DNA of 61,291 nt from Parcubacteria group bacterium (lineage in GTDB: Bacteria; Patescibacteriota; Minisyncoccia; Phycocordibacterales; Zambryskibacteraceae). The stretch spans positions 1-61,291 of the forward strand of contig JAQBRH010000003.1 of NCBI GenBank assembly GCA_028286565.1. The letters run 5' to 3'. The notes under the pieces were generated by a model that made no database searches, was not told the origin of the DNA, and saw only the letters and a list, made by a program, of their open reading frames with translations. Positions 6,153 to 23,810 of this stretch are shown here, piece after piece (the stretch's first letter is position 1; each line of letters opens with the position of its first letter). The position numbers and the translations under genes are program-made.

Positions 6153-7829
6153 ATGGTTAAAGCGATATTCAGGTTCTTTTATAAGGAAACCGCGACGCTC
6201 CATAAGGCGGCGTATCTCTTGGGGTTCTTTGCCATCCTTTCCCAAGTGCTGGCCTTTCTCCGCGACAGGCTCCTCGCCCATGCGTTCGGAGCGAGTTCCG
6301 ACCTCGACATTTATTATGCCGCCTTTCGAATTCCGGACTTTCTCTTTGTGACGGTGGCGTCGGTCGTGTCCCTTTCGGTCATCGTGCCCTTCATCATCGA
6401 ACGGGAGAAACAAGGGCACGAAGAAGTGCGAATGTTCGTCGACAACATCTTTTCCTTCTTCTCGATCCTGATGATCGGGACGTGCGCCCTCGCCTTCTTT
6501 CTCATTCCGCACTTCTCCGGGGTCCTCTTCAAAGGATTTTCCGGCGAAGCGCTCCACCGGGTGGTGCTCCTTTCGAGGATATTCCTCCTGTCGCCGATCG
6601 CCCTCGGATTTTCGAATCTCTTCGGCTCCCTGACCCAAGCCTATAACCGGTTCATCATTTACGCCTTCGCTCCGCTTCTTTATAACCTCGGCATTATTAT
6701 AGGGATCATCGGCCTTGGCCCTCGCTACGGCATCATGGGCGTAGCCATCGGAGTGGTCTTTGGAGCCATCCTTCACGCTCTCGTTCAAATACCTTTTGTG
6801 ATAAAGATCGGATTGTTTCCTCGGATCTCGACCAAGCTTGATTTTGCATCAATAAAAAAAGTCGCCACCCTCTCTTTTCCCCGCACCCTGACGCTTTCCA
6901 TCAACCACATCAGCACCATTTTTATGGTGTCCATGGCCTCATTGATGACCGCGGGTTCGATCTCGATATTTTCCTTTGCGCTCAATATCCAATCAGTACC
7001 GCTCTCGGTTATCGGGGTCTCGTATTCCCTGGCAGCCTTTCCGACGCTCTCCAGGCACTTTGCGGATAAGAATTTGACGGCCTTTGTGGAACAAATGGCC
7101 ACGACGGCGCGGCACATCATCTTTTGGTCCCTGCCGGTGACCGCCCTCTTCATCGTCCTCCGCGCTCAGATCGTCCGCGTCCTTCTTGGGACAGGGCGCT
7201 TCAATTGGGACGATACGAGGCTTACGGCCGCCGCCCTCGCCCTCTTCGCTCTCTCGGCGGTCTTCCAGAGCTTGATGCTTCTCTTCATCCGGGCATTCTA
7301 TTCGGCCGGGCATACAAAAAAACCGTTCCTTATCAATTTGGTCTCGACGACGATCCTCATGCTCTGCGCCTACGGATTTGTGAAGATATTCTATGCTTCC
7401 CTCGGGTTCAGATATTTTATCAGCGCCCTTCTCAAGGTGGAGGATCTGCCGGGCACCGTCATCCTCATGCTCCCGCTCGGCTACTCGATCGGTACGATCA
7501 TAAACGGCATTGTTCACTGGATAGGATTTGAAAGGGACTTCGGAGGATTCTCCAAGGAGGTGAATCGTACATTGTTCGAATCGATCGGCGCGTCGGTGAT
7601 CCTCGGATATGTGTCGTACCTCGGGCTTGGATTGTTCGAACACATGTTCAATACGGATTCGCTCGTCGGCATATTCCTCCAAGGATTCTCTGCCGGCATG
7701 CTCGGCATCGCCGCCGGCGTCCTTGTCCTCTTTTTATTGAAAAGCAGGGAGCTTCGCGAAGCGTGGAATTCTATCCATGCAAAGTTCTGGCAGGCGAAAG
7801 TGGTCTCGACCGATCCGGAGATCGTTTAG
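6153..7829 (+). CDS. murJ: lipid II flippase MurJ/MviN
   Basis: N-terminus LLGFFAILSQVLAFLRDRLLAHAFGASSDLDIYYAAFRIPDFLF and ~14 TM helices are typical of MurJ. Confidence 0.85.
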   Translation: MVKAIFRFFYKETATLHKAAYLLGFFAILSQVLAFLRDRLLAHAFGASSDLDIYYAAFRIPDFLFVTVASVVSLSVIVPFIIEREKQGHEEVRMFVDNIFSFFSILMIGTCALAFFLIPHFSGVLFKGFSGEALHRVVLLSRIFLLSPIALGFSNLFGSLTQAYNRFIIYAFAPLLYNLGIIIGIIGLGPRYGIMGVAIGVVFGAILHALVQIPFVIKIGLFPRISTKLDFASIKKVATLSFPRTLTLSINHISTIFMVSMASLMTAGSISIFSFALNIQSVPLSVIGVSYSLAAFPTLSRHFADKNLTAFVEQMATTARHIIFWSLPVTALFIVLRAQIVRVLLGTGRFNWDDTRLTAAALALFALSAVFQSLMLLFIRAFYSAGHTKKPFLINLVSTTILMLCAYGFVKIFYASLGFRYFISALLKVEDLPGTVILMLPLGYSIGTIINGIVHWIGFERDFGGFSKEVNRTLFESIGASVILGYVSYLGLGLFEHMFNTDSLVGIFLQGFSAGMLGIAAGVLVLFLLKSRELREAWNSIHAKFWQAKVVSTDPEIV

Positions 7830-15828: not shown

Positions 15829-18411
15829 GTGAAAACCGACATGACCAAATCACGGAAACTAACTTTTCTCTCCCGCTTCGCTGCTGTGTATATGCTTGTG
15901 GCAGTGGTCTTTTCTAATTTTCCTCTGACTGCCCTTGCGGATACTCTTCTCACCGTCTCTGCGACGGCAAACGGCCAAACCGCGCTCACTCTTGCGACTT
16001 CGACCGATAGCTTCACTGTTGACCTTTCTTCGACGAACGCCACCGCCTGCCAGATGACGAGCCCCGCTCTCTCCGGTGTCACGGTCAATGCTTCGCTCGT
16101 AGTGAATCCCGGACACCCATACTATCCGCCGCTCGGAGGCAGCACGACCTTCACCTTTAACTGTACCGACGGGACCAACACCGGATCCGCGACCGTGGTC
16201 GTCTCTCTTCCTGCCGCAAGCGTCACCCCTCCTCCTCCAGGCGGAGCTGTGACCGTGGACGTGAAGGCAAACGGCTCGGACGGTCCTGTCACTCTCGCAA
16301 GCGGAGGCACCTTTACATACACTTGGACTTCGGCTAATGCGACGGCTTGCGAACAAACGTCGCCCGCGCTTACAGGGGTCTCTACTTCGGGAATTTCTAC
16401 AACCGTCGGTTCGGGTCACCCGTACTATCCATTGGTCGGAGCTCCAACGACCGTTACTATTCAGTGTACTGATGGGACAACTACCGCGACTGATTCAGTG
16501 GTCGTCGGCTTGGCTAACAACGGCGGCACCGGCTCTACCACTCCGGTGACCGTGGATGTGAAAGTGAACGGATCAGATGGCCCCACCGTCACCATCGCTT
16601 CGGGAAGTACGTATACTTACACCTGGACTTCGGCGAACGCCACCGCCTGTGAGCAGACGTCGCCCGCTCTCACCGGAGTTTCTACATTCGGATCCTCTCC
16701 TGTTGATCCTGCCCATCCGTATTATCCAGCCACTTCAACGCCGGTAACCATCACTATCCAGTGTACGGACGGTGTCACGACCGCATCCGACTCCGTGAGC
16801 GTTGCCCTTGGAGCTGTGACTCCTCCCGGAGGCGGCGGAAGCACGGTCACCGTGGACGTGAAGGCAAACGGCTCGGACGGTCCTCTTACCATTCAGAACG
16901 GAAGCCCATATACCTATACCTGGACTTCGACAAACGCCACCGCCTGCCAGCAGACCTCACCTGCGCTTACGGGCGTCGCTACTTCAGGCTCGGACGGCCC
17001 TGTCACCCCTGGCCATCCATACTATCCGGCCACCTCGACCCCGGTCACTATCACCATCAACTGTACGAACGGCTCTTCGACCGCAACCGATTCTGTGGTG
17101 ATCAGCCTCGCGAATGGCCCTGCGAATCCCGGCTGCCCGATCCCGACCATCTCAAGCGCTCTGTCGGCAAGCGTAGGAGTTAATCGACCATTTTCATACA
17201 CCATCACCGTCAATCAGGGTTCAACCACTCCGACGGTCACTGTCTCGAACCTTCCTTCGGGCCTTACCTACGACCCCGCGTCTCGCGTGATCTCCGGCGC
17301 CGTCACTCAGACCGGAACTTTCAATGTCCTCATCACCTCAGCTGATCCTTGCGGCACTGATTCACAGACGCTTGAGATCTCTGTCACTCCCGGAAGCACG
17401 AGCGGAGGCGGTGGAGGCGGTGGAGGCGGTGGAGGCGGCGGTTCTACCACTACGCCCGGCGGACATCGCCACCCTCCTACCCCCGAGGCTCCTGCTGCCT
17501 GCGATTTCCTCAAGGATTATATGAGAGCGGATTTCCAGAACGACCCGGTCGAGGTTATCAAGCTCCAGACCTTCCTCAAAGGCATCGAAGGCTATGACTA
17601 CGTGGCCATAAACGGCGTCTACGATCAGGCGACGATAAACGGGGTCAATGCCTTCCAGATGAAGTTTAAAGATGACATTCTCACTCCATGGGGCCACACC
17701 GCTCCTACGAGCTATGTATATATTTTGACCTTGAAGAAGATCAATGAGATCTATTGCCAGCACCTCCTGCCTCTCACCCCTGATGAGCAGAACGAGATCA
17801 ATGCCTTCCGAGCCCTCATTGAAGGCCTCAGAGGCCAAGGAGCGACCGTGGAAACGGTTGTGGAGACCTCTCCGGGGGGCTACGTCGAAGTTCCGGTCAC
17901 TCGTACAGAGAGTACGACCACCATCTCGACCTCGACTCCGGTCGAACTCCCGATAGTCGGACAGATCACCCCTCAAGGACAAAATCTCACGAACCTGGCG
18001 GCAGCGGTCTTCGCTCTCCCGGACGGATTCAAAGCCGGCATGCAGTGCCTCTATGAATGGCTGCTTATCCTGATTGTCCTTTATATCCTGGGTTCTGTCC
18101 TTAAAGATGTCCTTTATAAGGACACTCCGGAGAATATGAAGAAGAGGTTCCTCACTAAGTGGATAACTATTTCCCTCGGACTTGTGGTTGCGATCCTCAT
18201 CGCCTACGTTCTCGGAGAGTGGTGCATTATCCTCCCTCTCATCATCTCCCTTATCGTCTCCCTCGTCTGGATGGCCTTCTTCCCAAAGCACGGGTCGGTC
18301 AAAGCTTCTACCAGATCTTGGTACATCGTTCTCGCCGCCCGAGCCCGCAGCATGTTCTCAAAACGAGAGCCGGCGGCTATCATCATCGGCCCTACTGAAC
18401 CGAAGAAATAA
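15829..18411 (+). CDS. large surface protein: signal peptide, 4 tandem ~99-aa repeats, Ig-like domain, poly-Gly, peptidoglycan-binding-like domain, C-terminal TM helices
   Basis: Repeats start VTVDVKANGSDGP...TYTWTS.NATAC.QTSPALTGV...GHPYYP...C(T/N)(D/N)G. Also NLPSGLTYD...ISG Ig-like motif, G13 tract, IKLQTFLKG...GVYDQATINGVNAFQ (PG-binding-1-like) and 3-4 C-terminal TM helices. GTG start at 15829, with an alternative ATG at 15841. Confidence 0.75.
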   Translation: MKTDMTKSRKLTFLSRFAAVYMLVAVVFSNFPLTALADTLLTVSATANGQTALTLATSTDSFTVDLSSTNATACQMTSPALSGVTVNASLVVNPGHPYYPPLGGSTTFTFNCTDGTNTGSATVVVSLPAASVTPPPPGGAVTVDVKANGSDGPVTLASGGTFTYTWTSANATACEQTSPALTGVSTSGISTTVGSGHPYYPLVGAPTTVTIQCTDGTTTATDSVVVGLANNGGTGSTTPVTVDVKVNGSDGPTVTIASGSTYTYTWTSANATACEQTSPALTGVSTFGSSPVDPAHPYYPATSTPVTITIQCTDGVTTASDSVSVALGAVTPPGGGGSTVTVDVKANGSDGPLTIQNGSPYTYTWTSTNATACQQTSPALTGVATSGSDGPVTPGHPYYPATSTPVTITINCTNGSSTATDSVVISLANGPANPGCPIPTISSALSASVGVNRPFSYTITVNQGSTTPTVTVSNLPSGLTYDPASRVISGAVTQTGTFNVLITSADPCGTDSQTLEISVTPGSTSGGGGGGGGGGGGGSTTTPGGHRHPPTPEAPAACDFLKDYMRADFQNDPVEVIKLQTFLKGIEGYDYVAINGVYDQATINGVNAFQMKFKDDILTPWGHTAPTSYVYILTLKKINEIYCQHLLPLTPDEQNEINAFRALIEGLRGQGATVETVVETSPGGYVEVPVTRTESTTTISTSTPVELPIVGQITPQGQNLTNLAAAVFALPDGFKAGMQCLYEWLLILIVLYILGSVLKDVLYKDTPENMKKRFLTKWITISLGLVVAILIAYVLGEWCIILPLIISLIVSLVWMAFFPKHGSVKASTRSWYIVLAARARSMFSKREPAAIIIGPTEPKK
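15940..17130 (+). repeat. four in-frame tandem repeats of ~297-300 nt inside the surface-protein gene
   Basis: Unit starts gtgaccgtggacgtgaaggcaaacggc at 16249 and 16846 (16846 differs only in its third nucleotide), and gtgaccgtggatgtgaaagtgaacgga at 16546. The first unit is more diverged. Confidence 0.7.
17404..17442 (+). repeat. 9-nt microsatellite (GGAGGCGGT)x3 plus variant units, encoding Gly13
   Basis: ggaggcggt ggaggcggt ggaggcggt ggaggcggc ggt, read directly. Confidence 0.9.
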
Positions 18412-19663: not shown

Positions 19664-19735
19664 GGCCCTATCGTCTATCGGTTAGGACACAAGCTTTTCA
19701 AGCTTGGAAGCAGGGTTCGACTCCCTGTAGGGTCA
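19664..19735 (+). tRNA. tRNA-Glu(TTC)
   Basis: Acceptor ggcccta/tagggtc (G2-U71), anticodon arm caagc-ttTTCaa-gcttg, T arm caggg-ttcgact-ccctg. Confidence 0.9.
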
Positions 19736-19828
19736 TGGCATACGAAATGAGCGTCCGAGAGGGCGCCATTTTCGTACCATGACCCTAAGCAAGGTGACAA
19801 TTCACCTTGCGTCAGGGAGTCGAAAGGG

Positions 19829-19881
19829 TTTTCGTTATCGAGTATGCCGAGATCGAAAACCACCCGCGACGGTAGTCGAGA
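19829..19881 (+). repeat. 53-nt conserved module, left copy (inverted partner at 23472-23524)
   Basis: ttttcgttatcgagtatgCcgagatcgaaaaccacccgcgacggtagtcgaga. The reverse complement of 23472-23524 is identical except C/T at 19847. Confidence 0.95.
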
Positions 19882-19896
19882 CTCCCTGTAGGGTCA
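19880..19896 (+). repeat. exact 17-nt duplicate of the tRNA-Glu 3' end (G57 to discriminator)
   Basis: gactccctgtagggtca is identical to 19719-19735. Confidence 0.95.
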
Positions 19897-19973
19897 CAAC
19901 GGTTCCAAGTTATATTCCTCAACGTATTTTTCGTGTGGCCAAGGGGATAAAAACCACACAGATTATATGGATA

Positions 19974-20675: not shown

Positions 20676-20822
20676 GATTGGGTCCTCTAGAAGTGGTGTA
20701 ATCGCCCAATCGTGGGCAATATAGGCTTGTGTATATAAGGAGCGACTTTTCAAACAATACAACATTTACCGAGATAATTCAAGTGGTTCATAAATGAGCT
20801 GAGGTAAGATATTTACACACCC

Positions 20823-20855
20823 GGTTCCAATCCTGTACAGCATGGGTCACTTGAC
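20823..20855 (+). repeat. T-arm-like intergenic repeat R1 with attached -35 box
   Basis: ggttccaatcctgtacagcatgggtcacTTGAC. A TTGACA-N17-TATAGT promoter follows. Confidence 0.8.
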
Positions 20856-21363: not shown

Positions 21364-21413
21364 TATATACCTATAGACTTGGTTCCAATCCTGTATAATT
21401 AGGGTCACTTGAC
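21364..21413 (+). repeat. T-arm-like intergenic repeat R2 (extended form)
   Basis: tatatacctatagacttggttccaatcctgtataattagggtcacTTGAC. A TTGACT-N17-TATAAC promoter follows. Confidence 0.8.
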
Positions 21414-21829: not shown

Positions 21830-21874
21830 TATATACCCATAGACTCGGTTCCAATCTCGTATACTATGGGTCAC
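21830..21874 (+). repeat. T-arm-like intergenic repeat R3 (extended form)
   Basis: tatatacccatagactcggttccaatctcgtatactatgggtcac. Confidence 0.8.
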
Positions 21875-21921
21875 ATAAAGAGATACATTTTTCTCAACGT
21901 ACTTTGGTATAATACAGCCCA

Positions 21922-23454: not shown

Positions 23455-23473
23455 GGTGCGCGATACAGGATTC
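23455..23473 (-). repeat. exact 19-nt duplicate of the tRNA-Val 3' end (G57 to discriminator plus 2 trailer nt)
   Basis: ggtgcgcgatacaggattc is identical to 23660-23678. Confidence 0.95.
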
Positions 23474-23524
23474 TCGACTACCGTCGCGGGTGGTTTTCGA
23501 TCTCGACATACTCGATAACGAAAA
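23472..23524 (-). repeat. 53-nt conserved module, right copy
   Basis: Its reverse complement matches 19829-19881 at 52 of 53 positions. Confidence 0.95.
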
Positions 23525-23661
23525 TCTTACAGATTCTGTCCACTCATTGGATCTTTTGAAAAAAGCTCTCAATGAGTCTTGCGAAGCTCCAAGTATTCGC
23601 TTCTCACCCTTTCAAATCCTGCCGCAAAGCAAGCAGTTGCTTTGCTATCGCAAATCTCGGG

Positions 23662-23734
23662 TGCGCGATACAGGATTCGAACCTGTGACCCTCTCAACGT
23701 CAATGAGATGCTCTACCAACTGAGCTAACCGCGC
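23662..23734 (-). tRNA. tRNA-Val(GAC)
   Basis: Acceptor gcgcggt/atcgcgc, anticodon arm tctca-ttGACgt-tgaga, T arm acagg-ttcgaat-cctgt. Confidence 0.9.
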
Positions 23735-23810
23735 AGAACTCATATAAATTAGCTTAAAATCGACCGCCTGGCAACTCTACACAGGCGATCTTTAAGGTAA
23801 AATAAAATCT

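Follow-up and report, generated by a model that had tools for sequence, protein, structure and literature searches.

Downstream of its tRNA-Glu and tRNA-Val genes, the 61,291-nt contig JAQBRH010000003.1 of a Parcubacteria group bacterium (assembly GCA_028286565.1; the whole stretch is hereafter called the window) carries two copies of a short element that represents a widespread non-autonomous insertion family at tRNA T-loops, with a covarying sense-strand fold closed by a guide:target duplex. The 3' arm of the guide pairs with a copy of the tRNA end and closes a junction made up of GAAAG, a helix P1, ACCCG, a helix P2 and a single A; in class 1 of the family, the guide is split in two by a hairpin, H. 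Membership of a small (about 110-200 nt), protein-less, non-autonomous family residing at tRNA 3' parts in bacteria of the candidate phyla radiation (CPR)/Patescibacteria is the best explanation of both window loci. We could not place this family in any known one, nor did we meet it in Rfam or in the literature searched.

A conserved three-way junction closed by a guide:target helix

Read on the tRNA strand, family members share the order tRNA, spacer, T'a, H, T'b, GAAAG, P1, ACCCG, P2, A and a copy of the tRNA from base 57 onwards, here called 'post' to distinguish it from T, the corresponding part of the upstream tRNA. T'a complements tRNA positions 66-73 and T'b positions 57-65, the latter continuing into TCGAA, the complement of the universal T-loop TTCGA. 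H, which stands between the two arms, has 9 bp, a variable stem and the loop consensus aaCTGCtt. P1 follows the pattern GG plus 5 nt ... 5 nt plus CC around a variable hairpin, P2 follows the pattern CGAC-GGYA-GUCG with the single A after it, and the spacer is in many copies a terminator-like hairpin or a GCGAAGC mini-hairpin. Positions 57-65 of 'post' pair with T'b as helix P0, so that P0, P1 and P2 make a three-way junction with conserved joining strands.

The sequence features that the original prediction, made from the sequence alone, had listed were all found where it had placed them, and they lie far above chance. The last 17 nt of tRNA-Glu (GACTCCCTGTAGGGTCA) occur exactly twice in the window and in none of 100 shuffles. 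Their reverse complement, interrupted by a perfect 9-bp hairpin, occupies 19780-19821 as TGACCCTA-A-GCAAGGTGA-CAAT-TCACCTTGC-GT-CAGGGAGTC, a single occurrence in the window (again 0 in 100 shuffles), and the 51-nt module at 19829-19879 differs at a single base from its minus-strand counterpart at 23474-23524, a recurrence for which the chance expectation is 0. This module had been given as 53 nt long; that it is shared between the copies stands, but its length is 51 nt by exact match, or ~58 nt with the invariant GAAAGGG. The minimum-free-energy fold of 19736-19900 (-80 kcal/mol, z = -9.4, matched by 0/200 shuffles) is the fold that had been drawn for the Glu copy, and the Val copy folds equivalently (z = -4.0). 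The same layout with Val-specific arms had been described there, which sequence and fold both confirm: the guide arms GCGAT and CAGGATT are imperfect matches to their target, and ~82 additional nt separate GAAAGGG from the module. The inserts are 144 nt long at tRNA-Glu and 185 nt at tRNA-Val.

An exact-word scan of one genome per species, whose pattern demanded CCACCCGCGAC(GG)NAGTCGA, returned 14 true loci, all of them in CPR bacteria (Saccharibacteria, Paceibacterota and Lloydbacteria), and a metagenome scan returned ~19 additional ones. With covariance-model searches included, the family comprises about 30 loci beyond the window's two copies; individual loci are given below by L numbers. 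The covariance model, made from 24 distinct copies, recovered diverged copies that had escaped the word scans, and in the window it found the two copies already known and no others. All copies whose upstream sequence was in hand adjoin the 3' side of a same-strand tRNA. Seven types of tRNA serve as targets, namely Glu, Val, Gly(UCC, GCC), Arg(UCG, GCG, UCU), Lys(CUU, UUU), Pro and Gln, and the target-matched pairing first noticed at two tRNA genes is real and recurs on many different ones. Tandem arrays and partial units are also present among the loci. Three scans of viral contigs gave chance matches or none.

Covariation supports H, P1, P2 and the helix between T'b and the tRNA copy, and with them a conserved three-way junction. 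In a MAFFT alignment of 24 copies, 96.6% of pair cells were paired compared with 81.5% after shuffling, the observed value being reached in 0/500 shuffles; both sides had changed in 19 of 29 pairs, and the best slid control was 48% paired. The alignment of 29 distinct copies fitted to the covariance model, which includes variants and leans toward the model by construction, gave 97.9% against 78.9% shuffled, both-side changes in 25/29 pairs and 50.5% for the best slid control, with all P2 pairs (4/4) covarying, for example as CGGC/GCCG in L050. GAAAGGG is unchanged in 24/24 copies though it was absent from every search pattern; the invariance of the core is in part an ascertainment artefact of the pattern that the scans demanded. 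The T-like stem (T'b with tRNA 57-65) that the original prediction had drawn around the module is upheld by covariation together with G:U wobbles, and its broader proposal of a structured, folded single strand by the behaviour of H, P0, P1 and P2 across homologous copies. G:U outnumbers A:C among tRNA-strand pairs (20 vs 8), and at one P1 pair two closely similar tRNA-Arg(tcg) copies, L016 and L049, show U:G replaced by C:G, which together identify the tRNA strand as the strand that folds. The single-stranded junctions are conserved as well, an RNA-like trait.

The acceptor-like half of the proposed tRNA mimic fared less well. A 7-bp stem between T'a and the tRNA end had been put forward; we found uninterrupted pairing of at least 7 bp in 7/20 copies, compared with 4-7% in mismatched element/tRNA controls, which argues that T'a is target-matched but frequently degraded. 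T'a is absent from L028, and L035, L036 and L046 have lost the distal 'post' or diverged there, leaving no downstream match, while T'a still fits the upstream tRNA. Where T and 'post' differ inside P0 (L008, L036, L020 and L049), T'b is, as read by eye, closer to the upstream tRNA in 4/5 cases, and we tentatively suggest that the guide may move together with the upstream T copy. In the relaxed search for a tRNA-like element that had been proposed as a check, ARAGORN called the host tRNAs only, and neither it nor Rfam, even at E<=10, gave a tRNA, transfer-messenger RNA (tmRNA) or tRNA-like structure (TLS) match within the elements. Of the predicted minihelix, the T-like stem is conserved and covarying, whereas the acceptor-like stem is evident in only roughly one copy in three, and a tRNA mimic is therefore not established; the structural part of the original prediction is largely right, its tRNA-mimic part supported in part. 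Class 2 of the family, described below, has an uninterrupted 17-nt helix and no arm at 65/66, so that the general rule is a guide:target helix closing the junction and not a tRNA shape. We also rejected the idea that T'a copies the 5' acceptor strand of the tRNA: tRNA-Glu has a G2:U71 wobble, yet T'a has an A complementing U71.

Insertion, duplication and modularity

The element is an insertion, and the host tRNA remains intact. This follows from the tRNA-Gly(UCC) site, which is occupied in L027 and empty in L010 and L042: in the latter two the tRNA is directly followed by ATAAAATACTTTGACCC.GATGCGAAAGCATTTGGGTC..., and the same flank comes after 'post' in L027. No empty site was established for the window's own locus via homologues of its TsaD protein, of which the closest (89% identity) belongs to a Patescibacteria metagenome-assembled genome (MAG) and the second-closest differs in synteny. 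That closest homologue and the class A RNase P RNA of the window mark the stretch as part of a Patescibacteria chromosome.

Direct repeats of the tRNA 3' end around the insert, a hallmark of integrative elements, are present: the exact repeats of the window are 17 and 19 nt long, and those of the other loci measure 9-37 nt. Whatever the class or variant, the left boundary of the duplication is tRNA base 57. Its right end is base 73 plus 0-4 nt in most copies; where 'post' has decayed the duplication measures 9-14 nt, in L055:520-631 up to 34 nt (counted from the sequence) and in class-2 elements at least 40 nt. Overall, the right boundary ranges from base 73 to over 40 nt past it.

Different tRNAs carry different combinations of guide arms, H and core. 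L006, L020 and L051 have the same 22-nt H (GCGAGCAAACTGCTTTGCTCGC) but differ in arms and targets, a Gly copy from Saccharibacteria and an Arg copy from Paceibacterota share another H while having different cores, and the two window copies have 50/51 core bases the same, differ at about 9/22 H positions (counted) and carry unrelated arms. Such combinations are beyond the reach of point mutation, which argues that the guide arms are rewritten or exchanged as units. Snap-back copying was considered as the source of the mirrored segment and rejected; it suits the uninterrupted class-2 guide but cannot put a conserved H inside class-1 guides. A separate observation concerns H itself: in the arrays of L042, L056 and L010 the final incomplete unit ends in or just past the H loop (CTGC), and in L010 the H loop holds a 31-nt insertion. 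On the strength of these sequences, H may be a breakpoint or an insertion hot spot.

The window copies are inverted relative to each other, and we asked whether the 3.5 kb between them could be the cargo of a composite element. This interval contains pyrB, a glyoxalase and a response regulator and no mobility genes, and the two copies are therefore treated as independent insertions.

Variants, a second class and other features

Variant cores retain the arrangement P0-GAAAG-P1-short joiner-P2 with NGUAA or GNNA loops, and expanded variants occur. In class 2, which comes from Saccharibacteria, the guide is a 17-nt complement of tRNA 57-73 without interruption, and GAA and a different three-way junction ending in GUGACC follow it; the element closes with a repeat of tRNA 57-73 and a portion of the native terminator, and it folds like class 1 (z = -5 to -6). 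An optional three-hairpin domain of ~82 nt accounts for the additional sequence of the window's Val copy and also occurs in two class-2 elements of the Saccharibacteria MAG L027, with a mean column identity of 87% over the three sequences. Present in elements of two classes, the domain is thus common to a Saccharibacteria MAG and a Parcubacteria-like genome. The parts of both window copies are listed in Table 1 together with the class-2 elements.

Table 1. Coordinates of the two window copies, the optional domain and the class-2 elements (window positions unless a locus is named).
Feature	Position	Strand	Basis
tRNA-Glu(UUC), intact host tRNA	19664-19735	+	ARAGORN; Rfam tRNA, 57.6 bits
T of Glu copy: tRNA-Glu positions 57-73, direct repeat copy 1, 17 nt	19719-19735	+	exact repeat
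Spacer, long hairpin lengthening the T/T'a inverted repeat by 14 nt	19736-19779	+	sequence, fold
Terminator-like stem inside the Glu spacer	19751-19766	+	terminator scan
T'a: reverse complement of tRNA-Glu 66-73	19780-19787	+	sequence comparison
H: 9-bp hairpin separating both guide arms, loop CAAT (family consensus aaCTGCtt)	19789-19810	+	9/9 pairs covary family-wide
T'b: reverse complement of tRNA-Glu 54-65	19813-19824	+	fold, covariation
Helix P0: T'b bases paired with 'post'	19813-19821 with 19880-19888	+	fold, covariation
GAAAGGG: junction GAAAG and first Gs of P1	19822-19828	+	invariant in 24/24 copies
P1: GGUUUUCG/CGAAAACC around variable inner hairpin	19827-19861	+	7/8 pairs covary
Joiner ACCCG, P2 hairpin CGAC-GGUA-GUCG, single A	19862-19879	+	P2 covaries in variant copies
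'post' of Glu copy: tRNA-Glu 57-73, copy 2; 3' strand of P0 and of acceptor-like stem	19880-19896	+	exact repeat, fold
tRNA-Val(GAC), intact host tRNA	23662-23734 (at most 23659-23735)	-	ARAGORN, Rfam
T of Val copy: tRNA-Val 57-73 + 2 nt, copy 1 of 19-nt direct repeat	23660-23678	-	repeat analysis
T'a of Val copy, ttGCGATa: imperfect complement of acceptor 3' strand	23646-23653	-	sequence
H of Val copy: GCAAAGCAA-CTGC-TTGCTTTGC	23624-23645	-	sequence, fold
T'b of Val copy: GCAGGATTT, then GAAAGGG	23607-23622	-	sequence, fold
Optional ~82-nt three-hairpin domain, placed within P1 of Val copy	23525-23606	-	same domain in two class-2 elements
Core module of Val copy (3' part of P1, ACCCG, P2, A), 50/51 nt as in Glu copy	23474-23524	-	repeat comparison
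'post' of Val copy: tRNA-Val 57-73 + 2 nt, copy 2	23455-23473	-	repeat analysis
~82-nt domain, TGAGAAGCGAA..CTTGGAGCTTCGCAAGAC..GGACAGAATCTGTAAGATT (motifs shared with the Val copy), in class 2	L027:3511-3600 and 6952-7040	-
Class-2 element	L042:1950-2080
Class-2 element	L027:6890-7110	-
Class-2 element	L020:1885-2035
Class-2 element	L027:3440-3640	-

In L013, an 85-aa GIY-YIG open reading frame (ORF; L013:4467-4721, minus strand) lies within the P1 inner hairpin and terminates at a stop codon located in the P2 loop. The family of this ORF (~80 aa) has 2649 matches in CPR bacteria at about 80% identity and was found about 100 nt 3' of tRNA-Gln in 5/5 loci examined (L013, L057, L060, L063 and L064). 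A second copy of the ORF is often present 5' of the tRNA at these tRNA-Gln loci, and the two spacers read, those of L013 and L057, both carry a structured ACTTCTTCACC...AGAAGAAGT. No GIY-YIG ORF was detected by tblastn in the window or in the other family loci collected at that point.

Several further observations stand apart from the family as defined above. In the interval between tRNA-Pro and tRNA-Gly of L056 (11303-11402), a 65-nt insert is followed by a diverged copy of tRNA-Pro 57-73 and may be a further degenerate type. A Saccharibacteria tRNA gene (L024:263-565) is split in its anticodon loop by a ~230-nt insert resembling a group I intron. In the window, a 47-nt repeat at 20809-20855, 21367-21413 and 21833-21879 (plus strand) lies upstream of the response regulator, a small ORF and pyrB; it holds GGTTCCAATCCTGTA, which matches the T arm of tRNA-Val but for one base, and (T)AGGGTCAC, the tRNA-Glu 3' end with one extra base, and promoter-like TTGAC...TATA hexamers are located downstream of the repeats. 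These repeats might represent promoter modules derived from tRNA ends, or else what is left of old insertions. The window also encodes, at 15829-18411 (plus strand), an 860-aa ORF with internal tandem repeats of ~300 nt (100 aa) and a Gly-rich GGCGGTGGA run, whose sole Pfam match is weak and of the peptidoglycan-binding type.

Mechanism, alternatives and relation to known systems

At gathering score, no family in Rfam 15, whose scope includes the hammerhead, twister, pistol, hatchet and HDV-like ribozymes and group I/II introns, matches the elements in the window, and at E<=10 the window elements, L043 and L049 gave host tRNAs and chance-level matches only. Literature searches, whose coverage was incomplete, found no description of such an element, in agreement with the earlier remark that none with this layout had been described. 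A Pfam scan of 60 window ORFs contained no transposase, integrase or reverse transcriptase, no Y1 HUH transposase TnpA was found in the 61-kb window, and neither window element contains an ORF.

We tentatively favour a non-autonomous, guide-bearing mobile element that folds in the sense strand, is active as an RNA read through from the tRNA and is fixed by a copy-type process. The active form would be the sense strand, most likely as RNA produced by read-through from the tRNA promoter; its target would be chosen by base pairing of the guide with tRNA 54-73, and the 3' end of the core would be joined to target base 57. A DNA copy would then be fixed by a copy-type process in which the first break is fixed at 56|57 and the second is variable, which would duplicate everything from base 57 to the second break. 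The catalyst might be supplied in trans or be the junction itself. Among the RNA-like traits that we count for an RNA form are the optional ~82-nt domain, the expanded variants and the GIY-YIG ORF in a P1 loop; homing-endonuclease ORFs sit inside introns similarly. A more far-reaching version would make the family a new class of programmable, protein-less mobile RNA with a three-way-junction core and a split guide to the 3' 17-20 nt of the tRNA, joined at base 57 possibly by self-catalysis and with its arms rewritten on moving; this we consider doubtful.

A number of points weigh against the mechanism that we favour. There is no direct evidence for a transcript of the element, neither window copy has a promoter-like site on the element strand, and the terminator-like hairpin that many copies have between tRNA and guide would limit read-through. 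The family has no reverse transcriptase or nuclease tied to it; GIY-YIG, found in a single class-1 copy (L013), is at best a candidate for its enzyme. To our knowledge, a 53-nt junction is without precedent as a strand-transfer catalyst. The GCGAAGC mini-hairpin, which is exceptionally stable as DNA, turns up repeatedly in spacers and P1 loops and hints at a single-stranded DNA form. The model also leaves unexplained how two arms flanking an unchanged H get rewritten, and the biases of the model-fitted alignment and of the search pattern, given above, belong on the same side.

The main rival to an RNA is a single-stranded DNA element, which we regard as rather unlikely. Here sense-strand DNA would fold into a recombination or transposition site for an enzyme acting in trans (an HUH/Y1 transposase or a tyrosine recombinase), the guide would pair with the target strand, and the copies would be non-autonomous. 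Strand-asymmetric pairing suits single-stranded DNA as well as RNA, and the combination of a hairpin with target-complementary bases is the logic of IS200/IS605; IS608 has a short guide beside a hairpin, and attC and CTX attP sites act folded. IS200/IS605 elements, however, lack a target duplication and have guides of 4-5 nt and two similar hairpins. The recurrent GCGAAGC mini-hairpin also fits, as do terminator-like spacers that would stop transcription entering the element, the breakpoint-like ends of the partial units in L042, L056 and L010 in or just after the H loop, and tandem arrays compatible with rolling-circle or Campbell-type insertion. Yet the window yielded no such enzyme, nor did one catch the eye in those parts of other loci that were read, no copy was found in viral contigs, and conserved purine-rich junctions, GNRA-like loops, multi-hairpin domains and an ORF in a loop are commoner in structured RNAs.

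Improbable, in our view, is a host or commensal small RNA gene that is not currently mobile, the first of the two options in the original prediction, whose tRNA-like minihelix RNA (guide, core, tRNA 3' copy and terminator) would be trimmed by RNase P and 3' tRNA-processing enzymes and would serve as a decoy, regulator or processing aid. Although the structure is conserved with compensatory changes across phyla, its presence differs between relatives, and tandem, truncated and many-tRNA copies are typical of selfish insertions. Saccharibacteria units do end like a tRNA gene, in a tRNA copy and a terminator-like hairpin, H leaves at the 65/66 boundary, where the other arms of a real tRNA depart, and a class A RNase P RNA is encoded in the window (Rfam). 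Against this, most copies have a weak acceptor-like stem or none, T'a may fit the upstream tRNA alone, the downstream tRNA copy has decayed past base 65-67 in several copies, and tRNA detectors do not recognise the element. Scars of integrase islands or prophages at tRNA genes, with attL and attR united after cargo loss, would explain direct repeats of the tRNA 3' end that begin in the T-loop and vary in 3' extent, as in the T-loop-type att-site class of tRNA integrases, but are very improbable, since independent deletions would not yield a compact architecture repeated at about 30 loci with compensatory changes, the inverted guide fits each tRNA, no integrase remnant lies in the window and viral contigs gave no matches.

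If the guide truly selects the target, as in the mechanism that we favour, the family would rank among the smallest known insertion systems that are guided by a nucleic acid, being about 110 nt long and with no protein of its own, and its target could be read straight from the element sequence. It would constitute a new kind of mobile element for CPR bacteria, whose mobile elements are little described, and would account for stray tRNA 3' fragments in their genomes. The conserved junction is a candidate new ribozyme or protein-binding RNA motif, and the re-templating of two guide arms around an unchanged hairpin is a concrete question raised by the family.

Three candidates among known systems were rejected. 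The hammerhead, compared by eye, has GAAA / 1 nt / CUGAUGA where the present junction has GAAAG / 5 nt / 1 nt; an archaeal-type bulge-helix-bulge intron at 56/57 would have its splice point within the 4-bp UCGA helix; and a DDE-type miniature inverted-repeat transposable element is at odds with inverted repeats (T'/T) that change with each tRNA target and with a duplication of variable length.

Other systems share single traits with the family. The H/ACA pocket likewise places two guide arms round a hairpin on one target strand, but the elements lack an ACA box, and we know of no H/ACA ribonucleoproteins in bacteria. In some copies, as in the tRNA-like domain of tmRNA, viral TLS and mascRNA, the 3' strand of the helix is an acceptor/T-stem strand ending at the discriminator; unlike these, the elements have no T-loop or elbow, the helix is overlong (about 17 bp), and the acceptor-like part is not conserved. 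R2-type non-long-terminal-repeat retroelements, which use target-primed reverse transcription, resemble the family in their residence in RNA genes, dependence on host promoters and precise first and variable second junction, and differ from it in that the elements are bacterial, about 150 nt long and encode no reverse transcriptase or endonuclease. Group I and group II introns also have an internal guide (similar to an exon-binding site) to a flanking host RNA gene and optional peripheral domains, and the GIY-YIG ORF in one copy's hairpin adds to the likeness. The elements, however, have no Rfam match (for group I, RF00028), a much smaller core (53 nt) and a flanking duplication, and the upstream tRNA is complete without splicing, for which reasons a group I intron, a type defined by a P3-P9 catalytic core, a terminal G and a 5' exon ending in a guide-paired U, was rejected.

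Further parallels are found among integrating elements. Integrative elements at tRNA genes that use tyrosine integrases and T-loop att sites insert, as here, in the 3' part, restore the tRNA and leave the displaced fragment repeated from the T-loop; the present elements, by comparison, are 110-200 nt long, have a covarying folded core with an inverted target copy inside and carry no integrase, and an integrase-type element was rejected given the 144- and 185-nt inserts and the lack of an integrase domain in the 60 window ORFs. IS110/IS1111 bridge (seek) RNAs resemble the family in their reprogrammable, element-encoded guides beside a stem, which set the target. The loops of bridge RNAs, however, base-pair with the top and bottom strands of the DNA as well as with the donor ends, and their partner is a DEDD recombinase that the element itself encodes; in the present family each arm is the reverse complement of one and the same strand, and the element has no ORF and no recombinase, which led us to reject this assignment too. 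IS200/IS605 elements (IS608-type), together with their non-autonomous PATE derivatives, share with the family a hairpin with adjacent target-pairing bases, action on one strand and small derivatives without ORFs. An IS200/IS605 or PATE end structure was nevertheless rejected: IS200/IS605 elements have related hairpins at their two ends and need TnpA, whereas the family described here has unlike hairpins (H and P2), a duplication of at least 17 nt and, with arms of 8+9 nt, a split guide of 17-20 nt.

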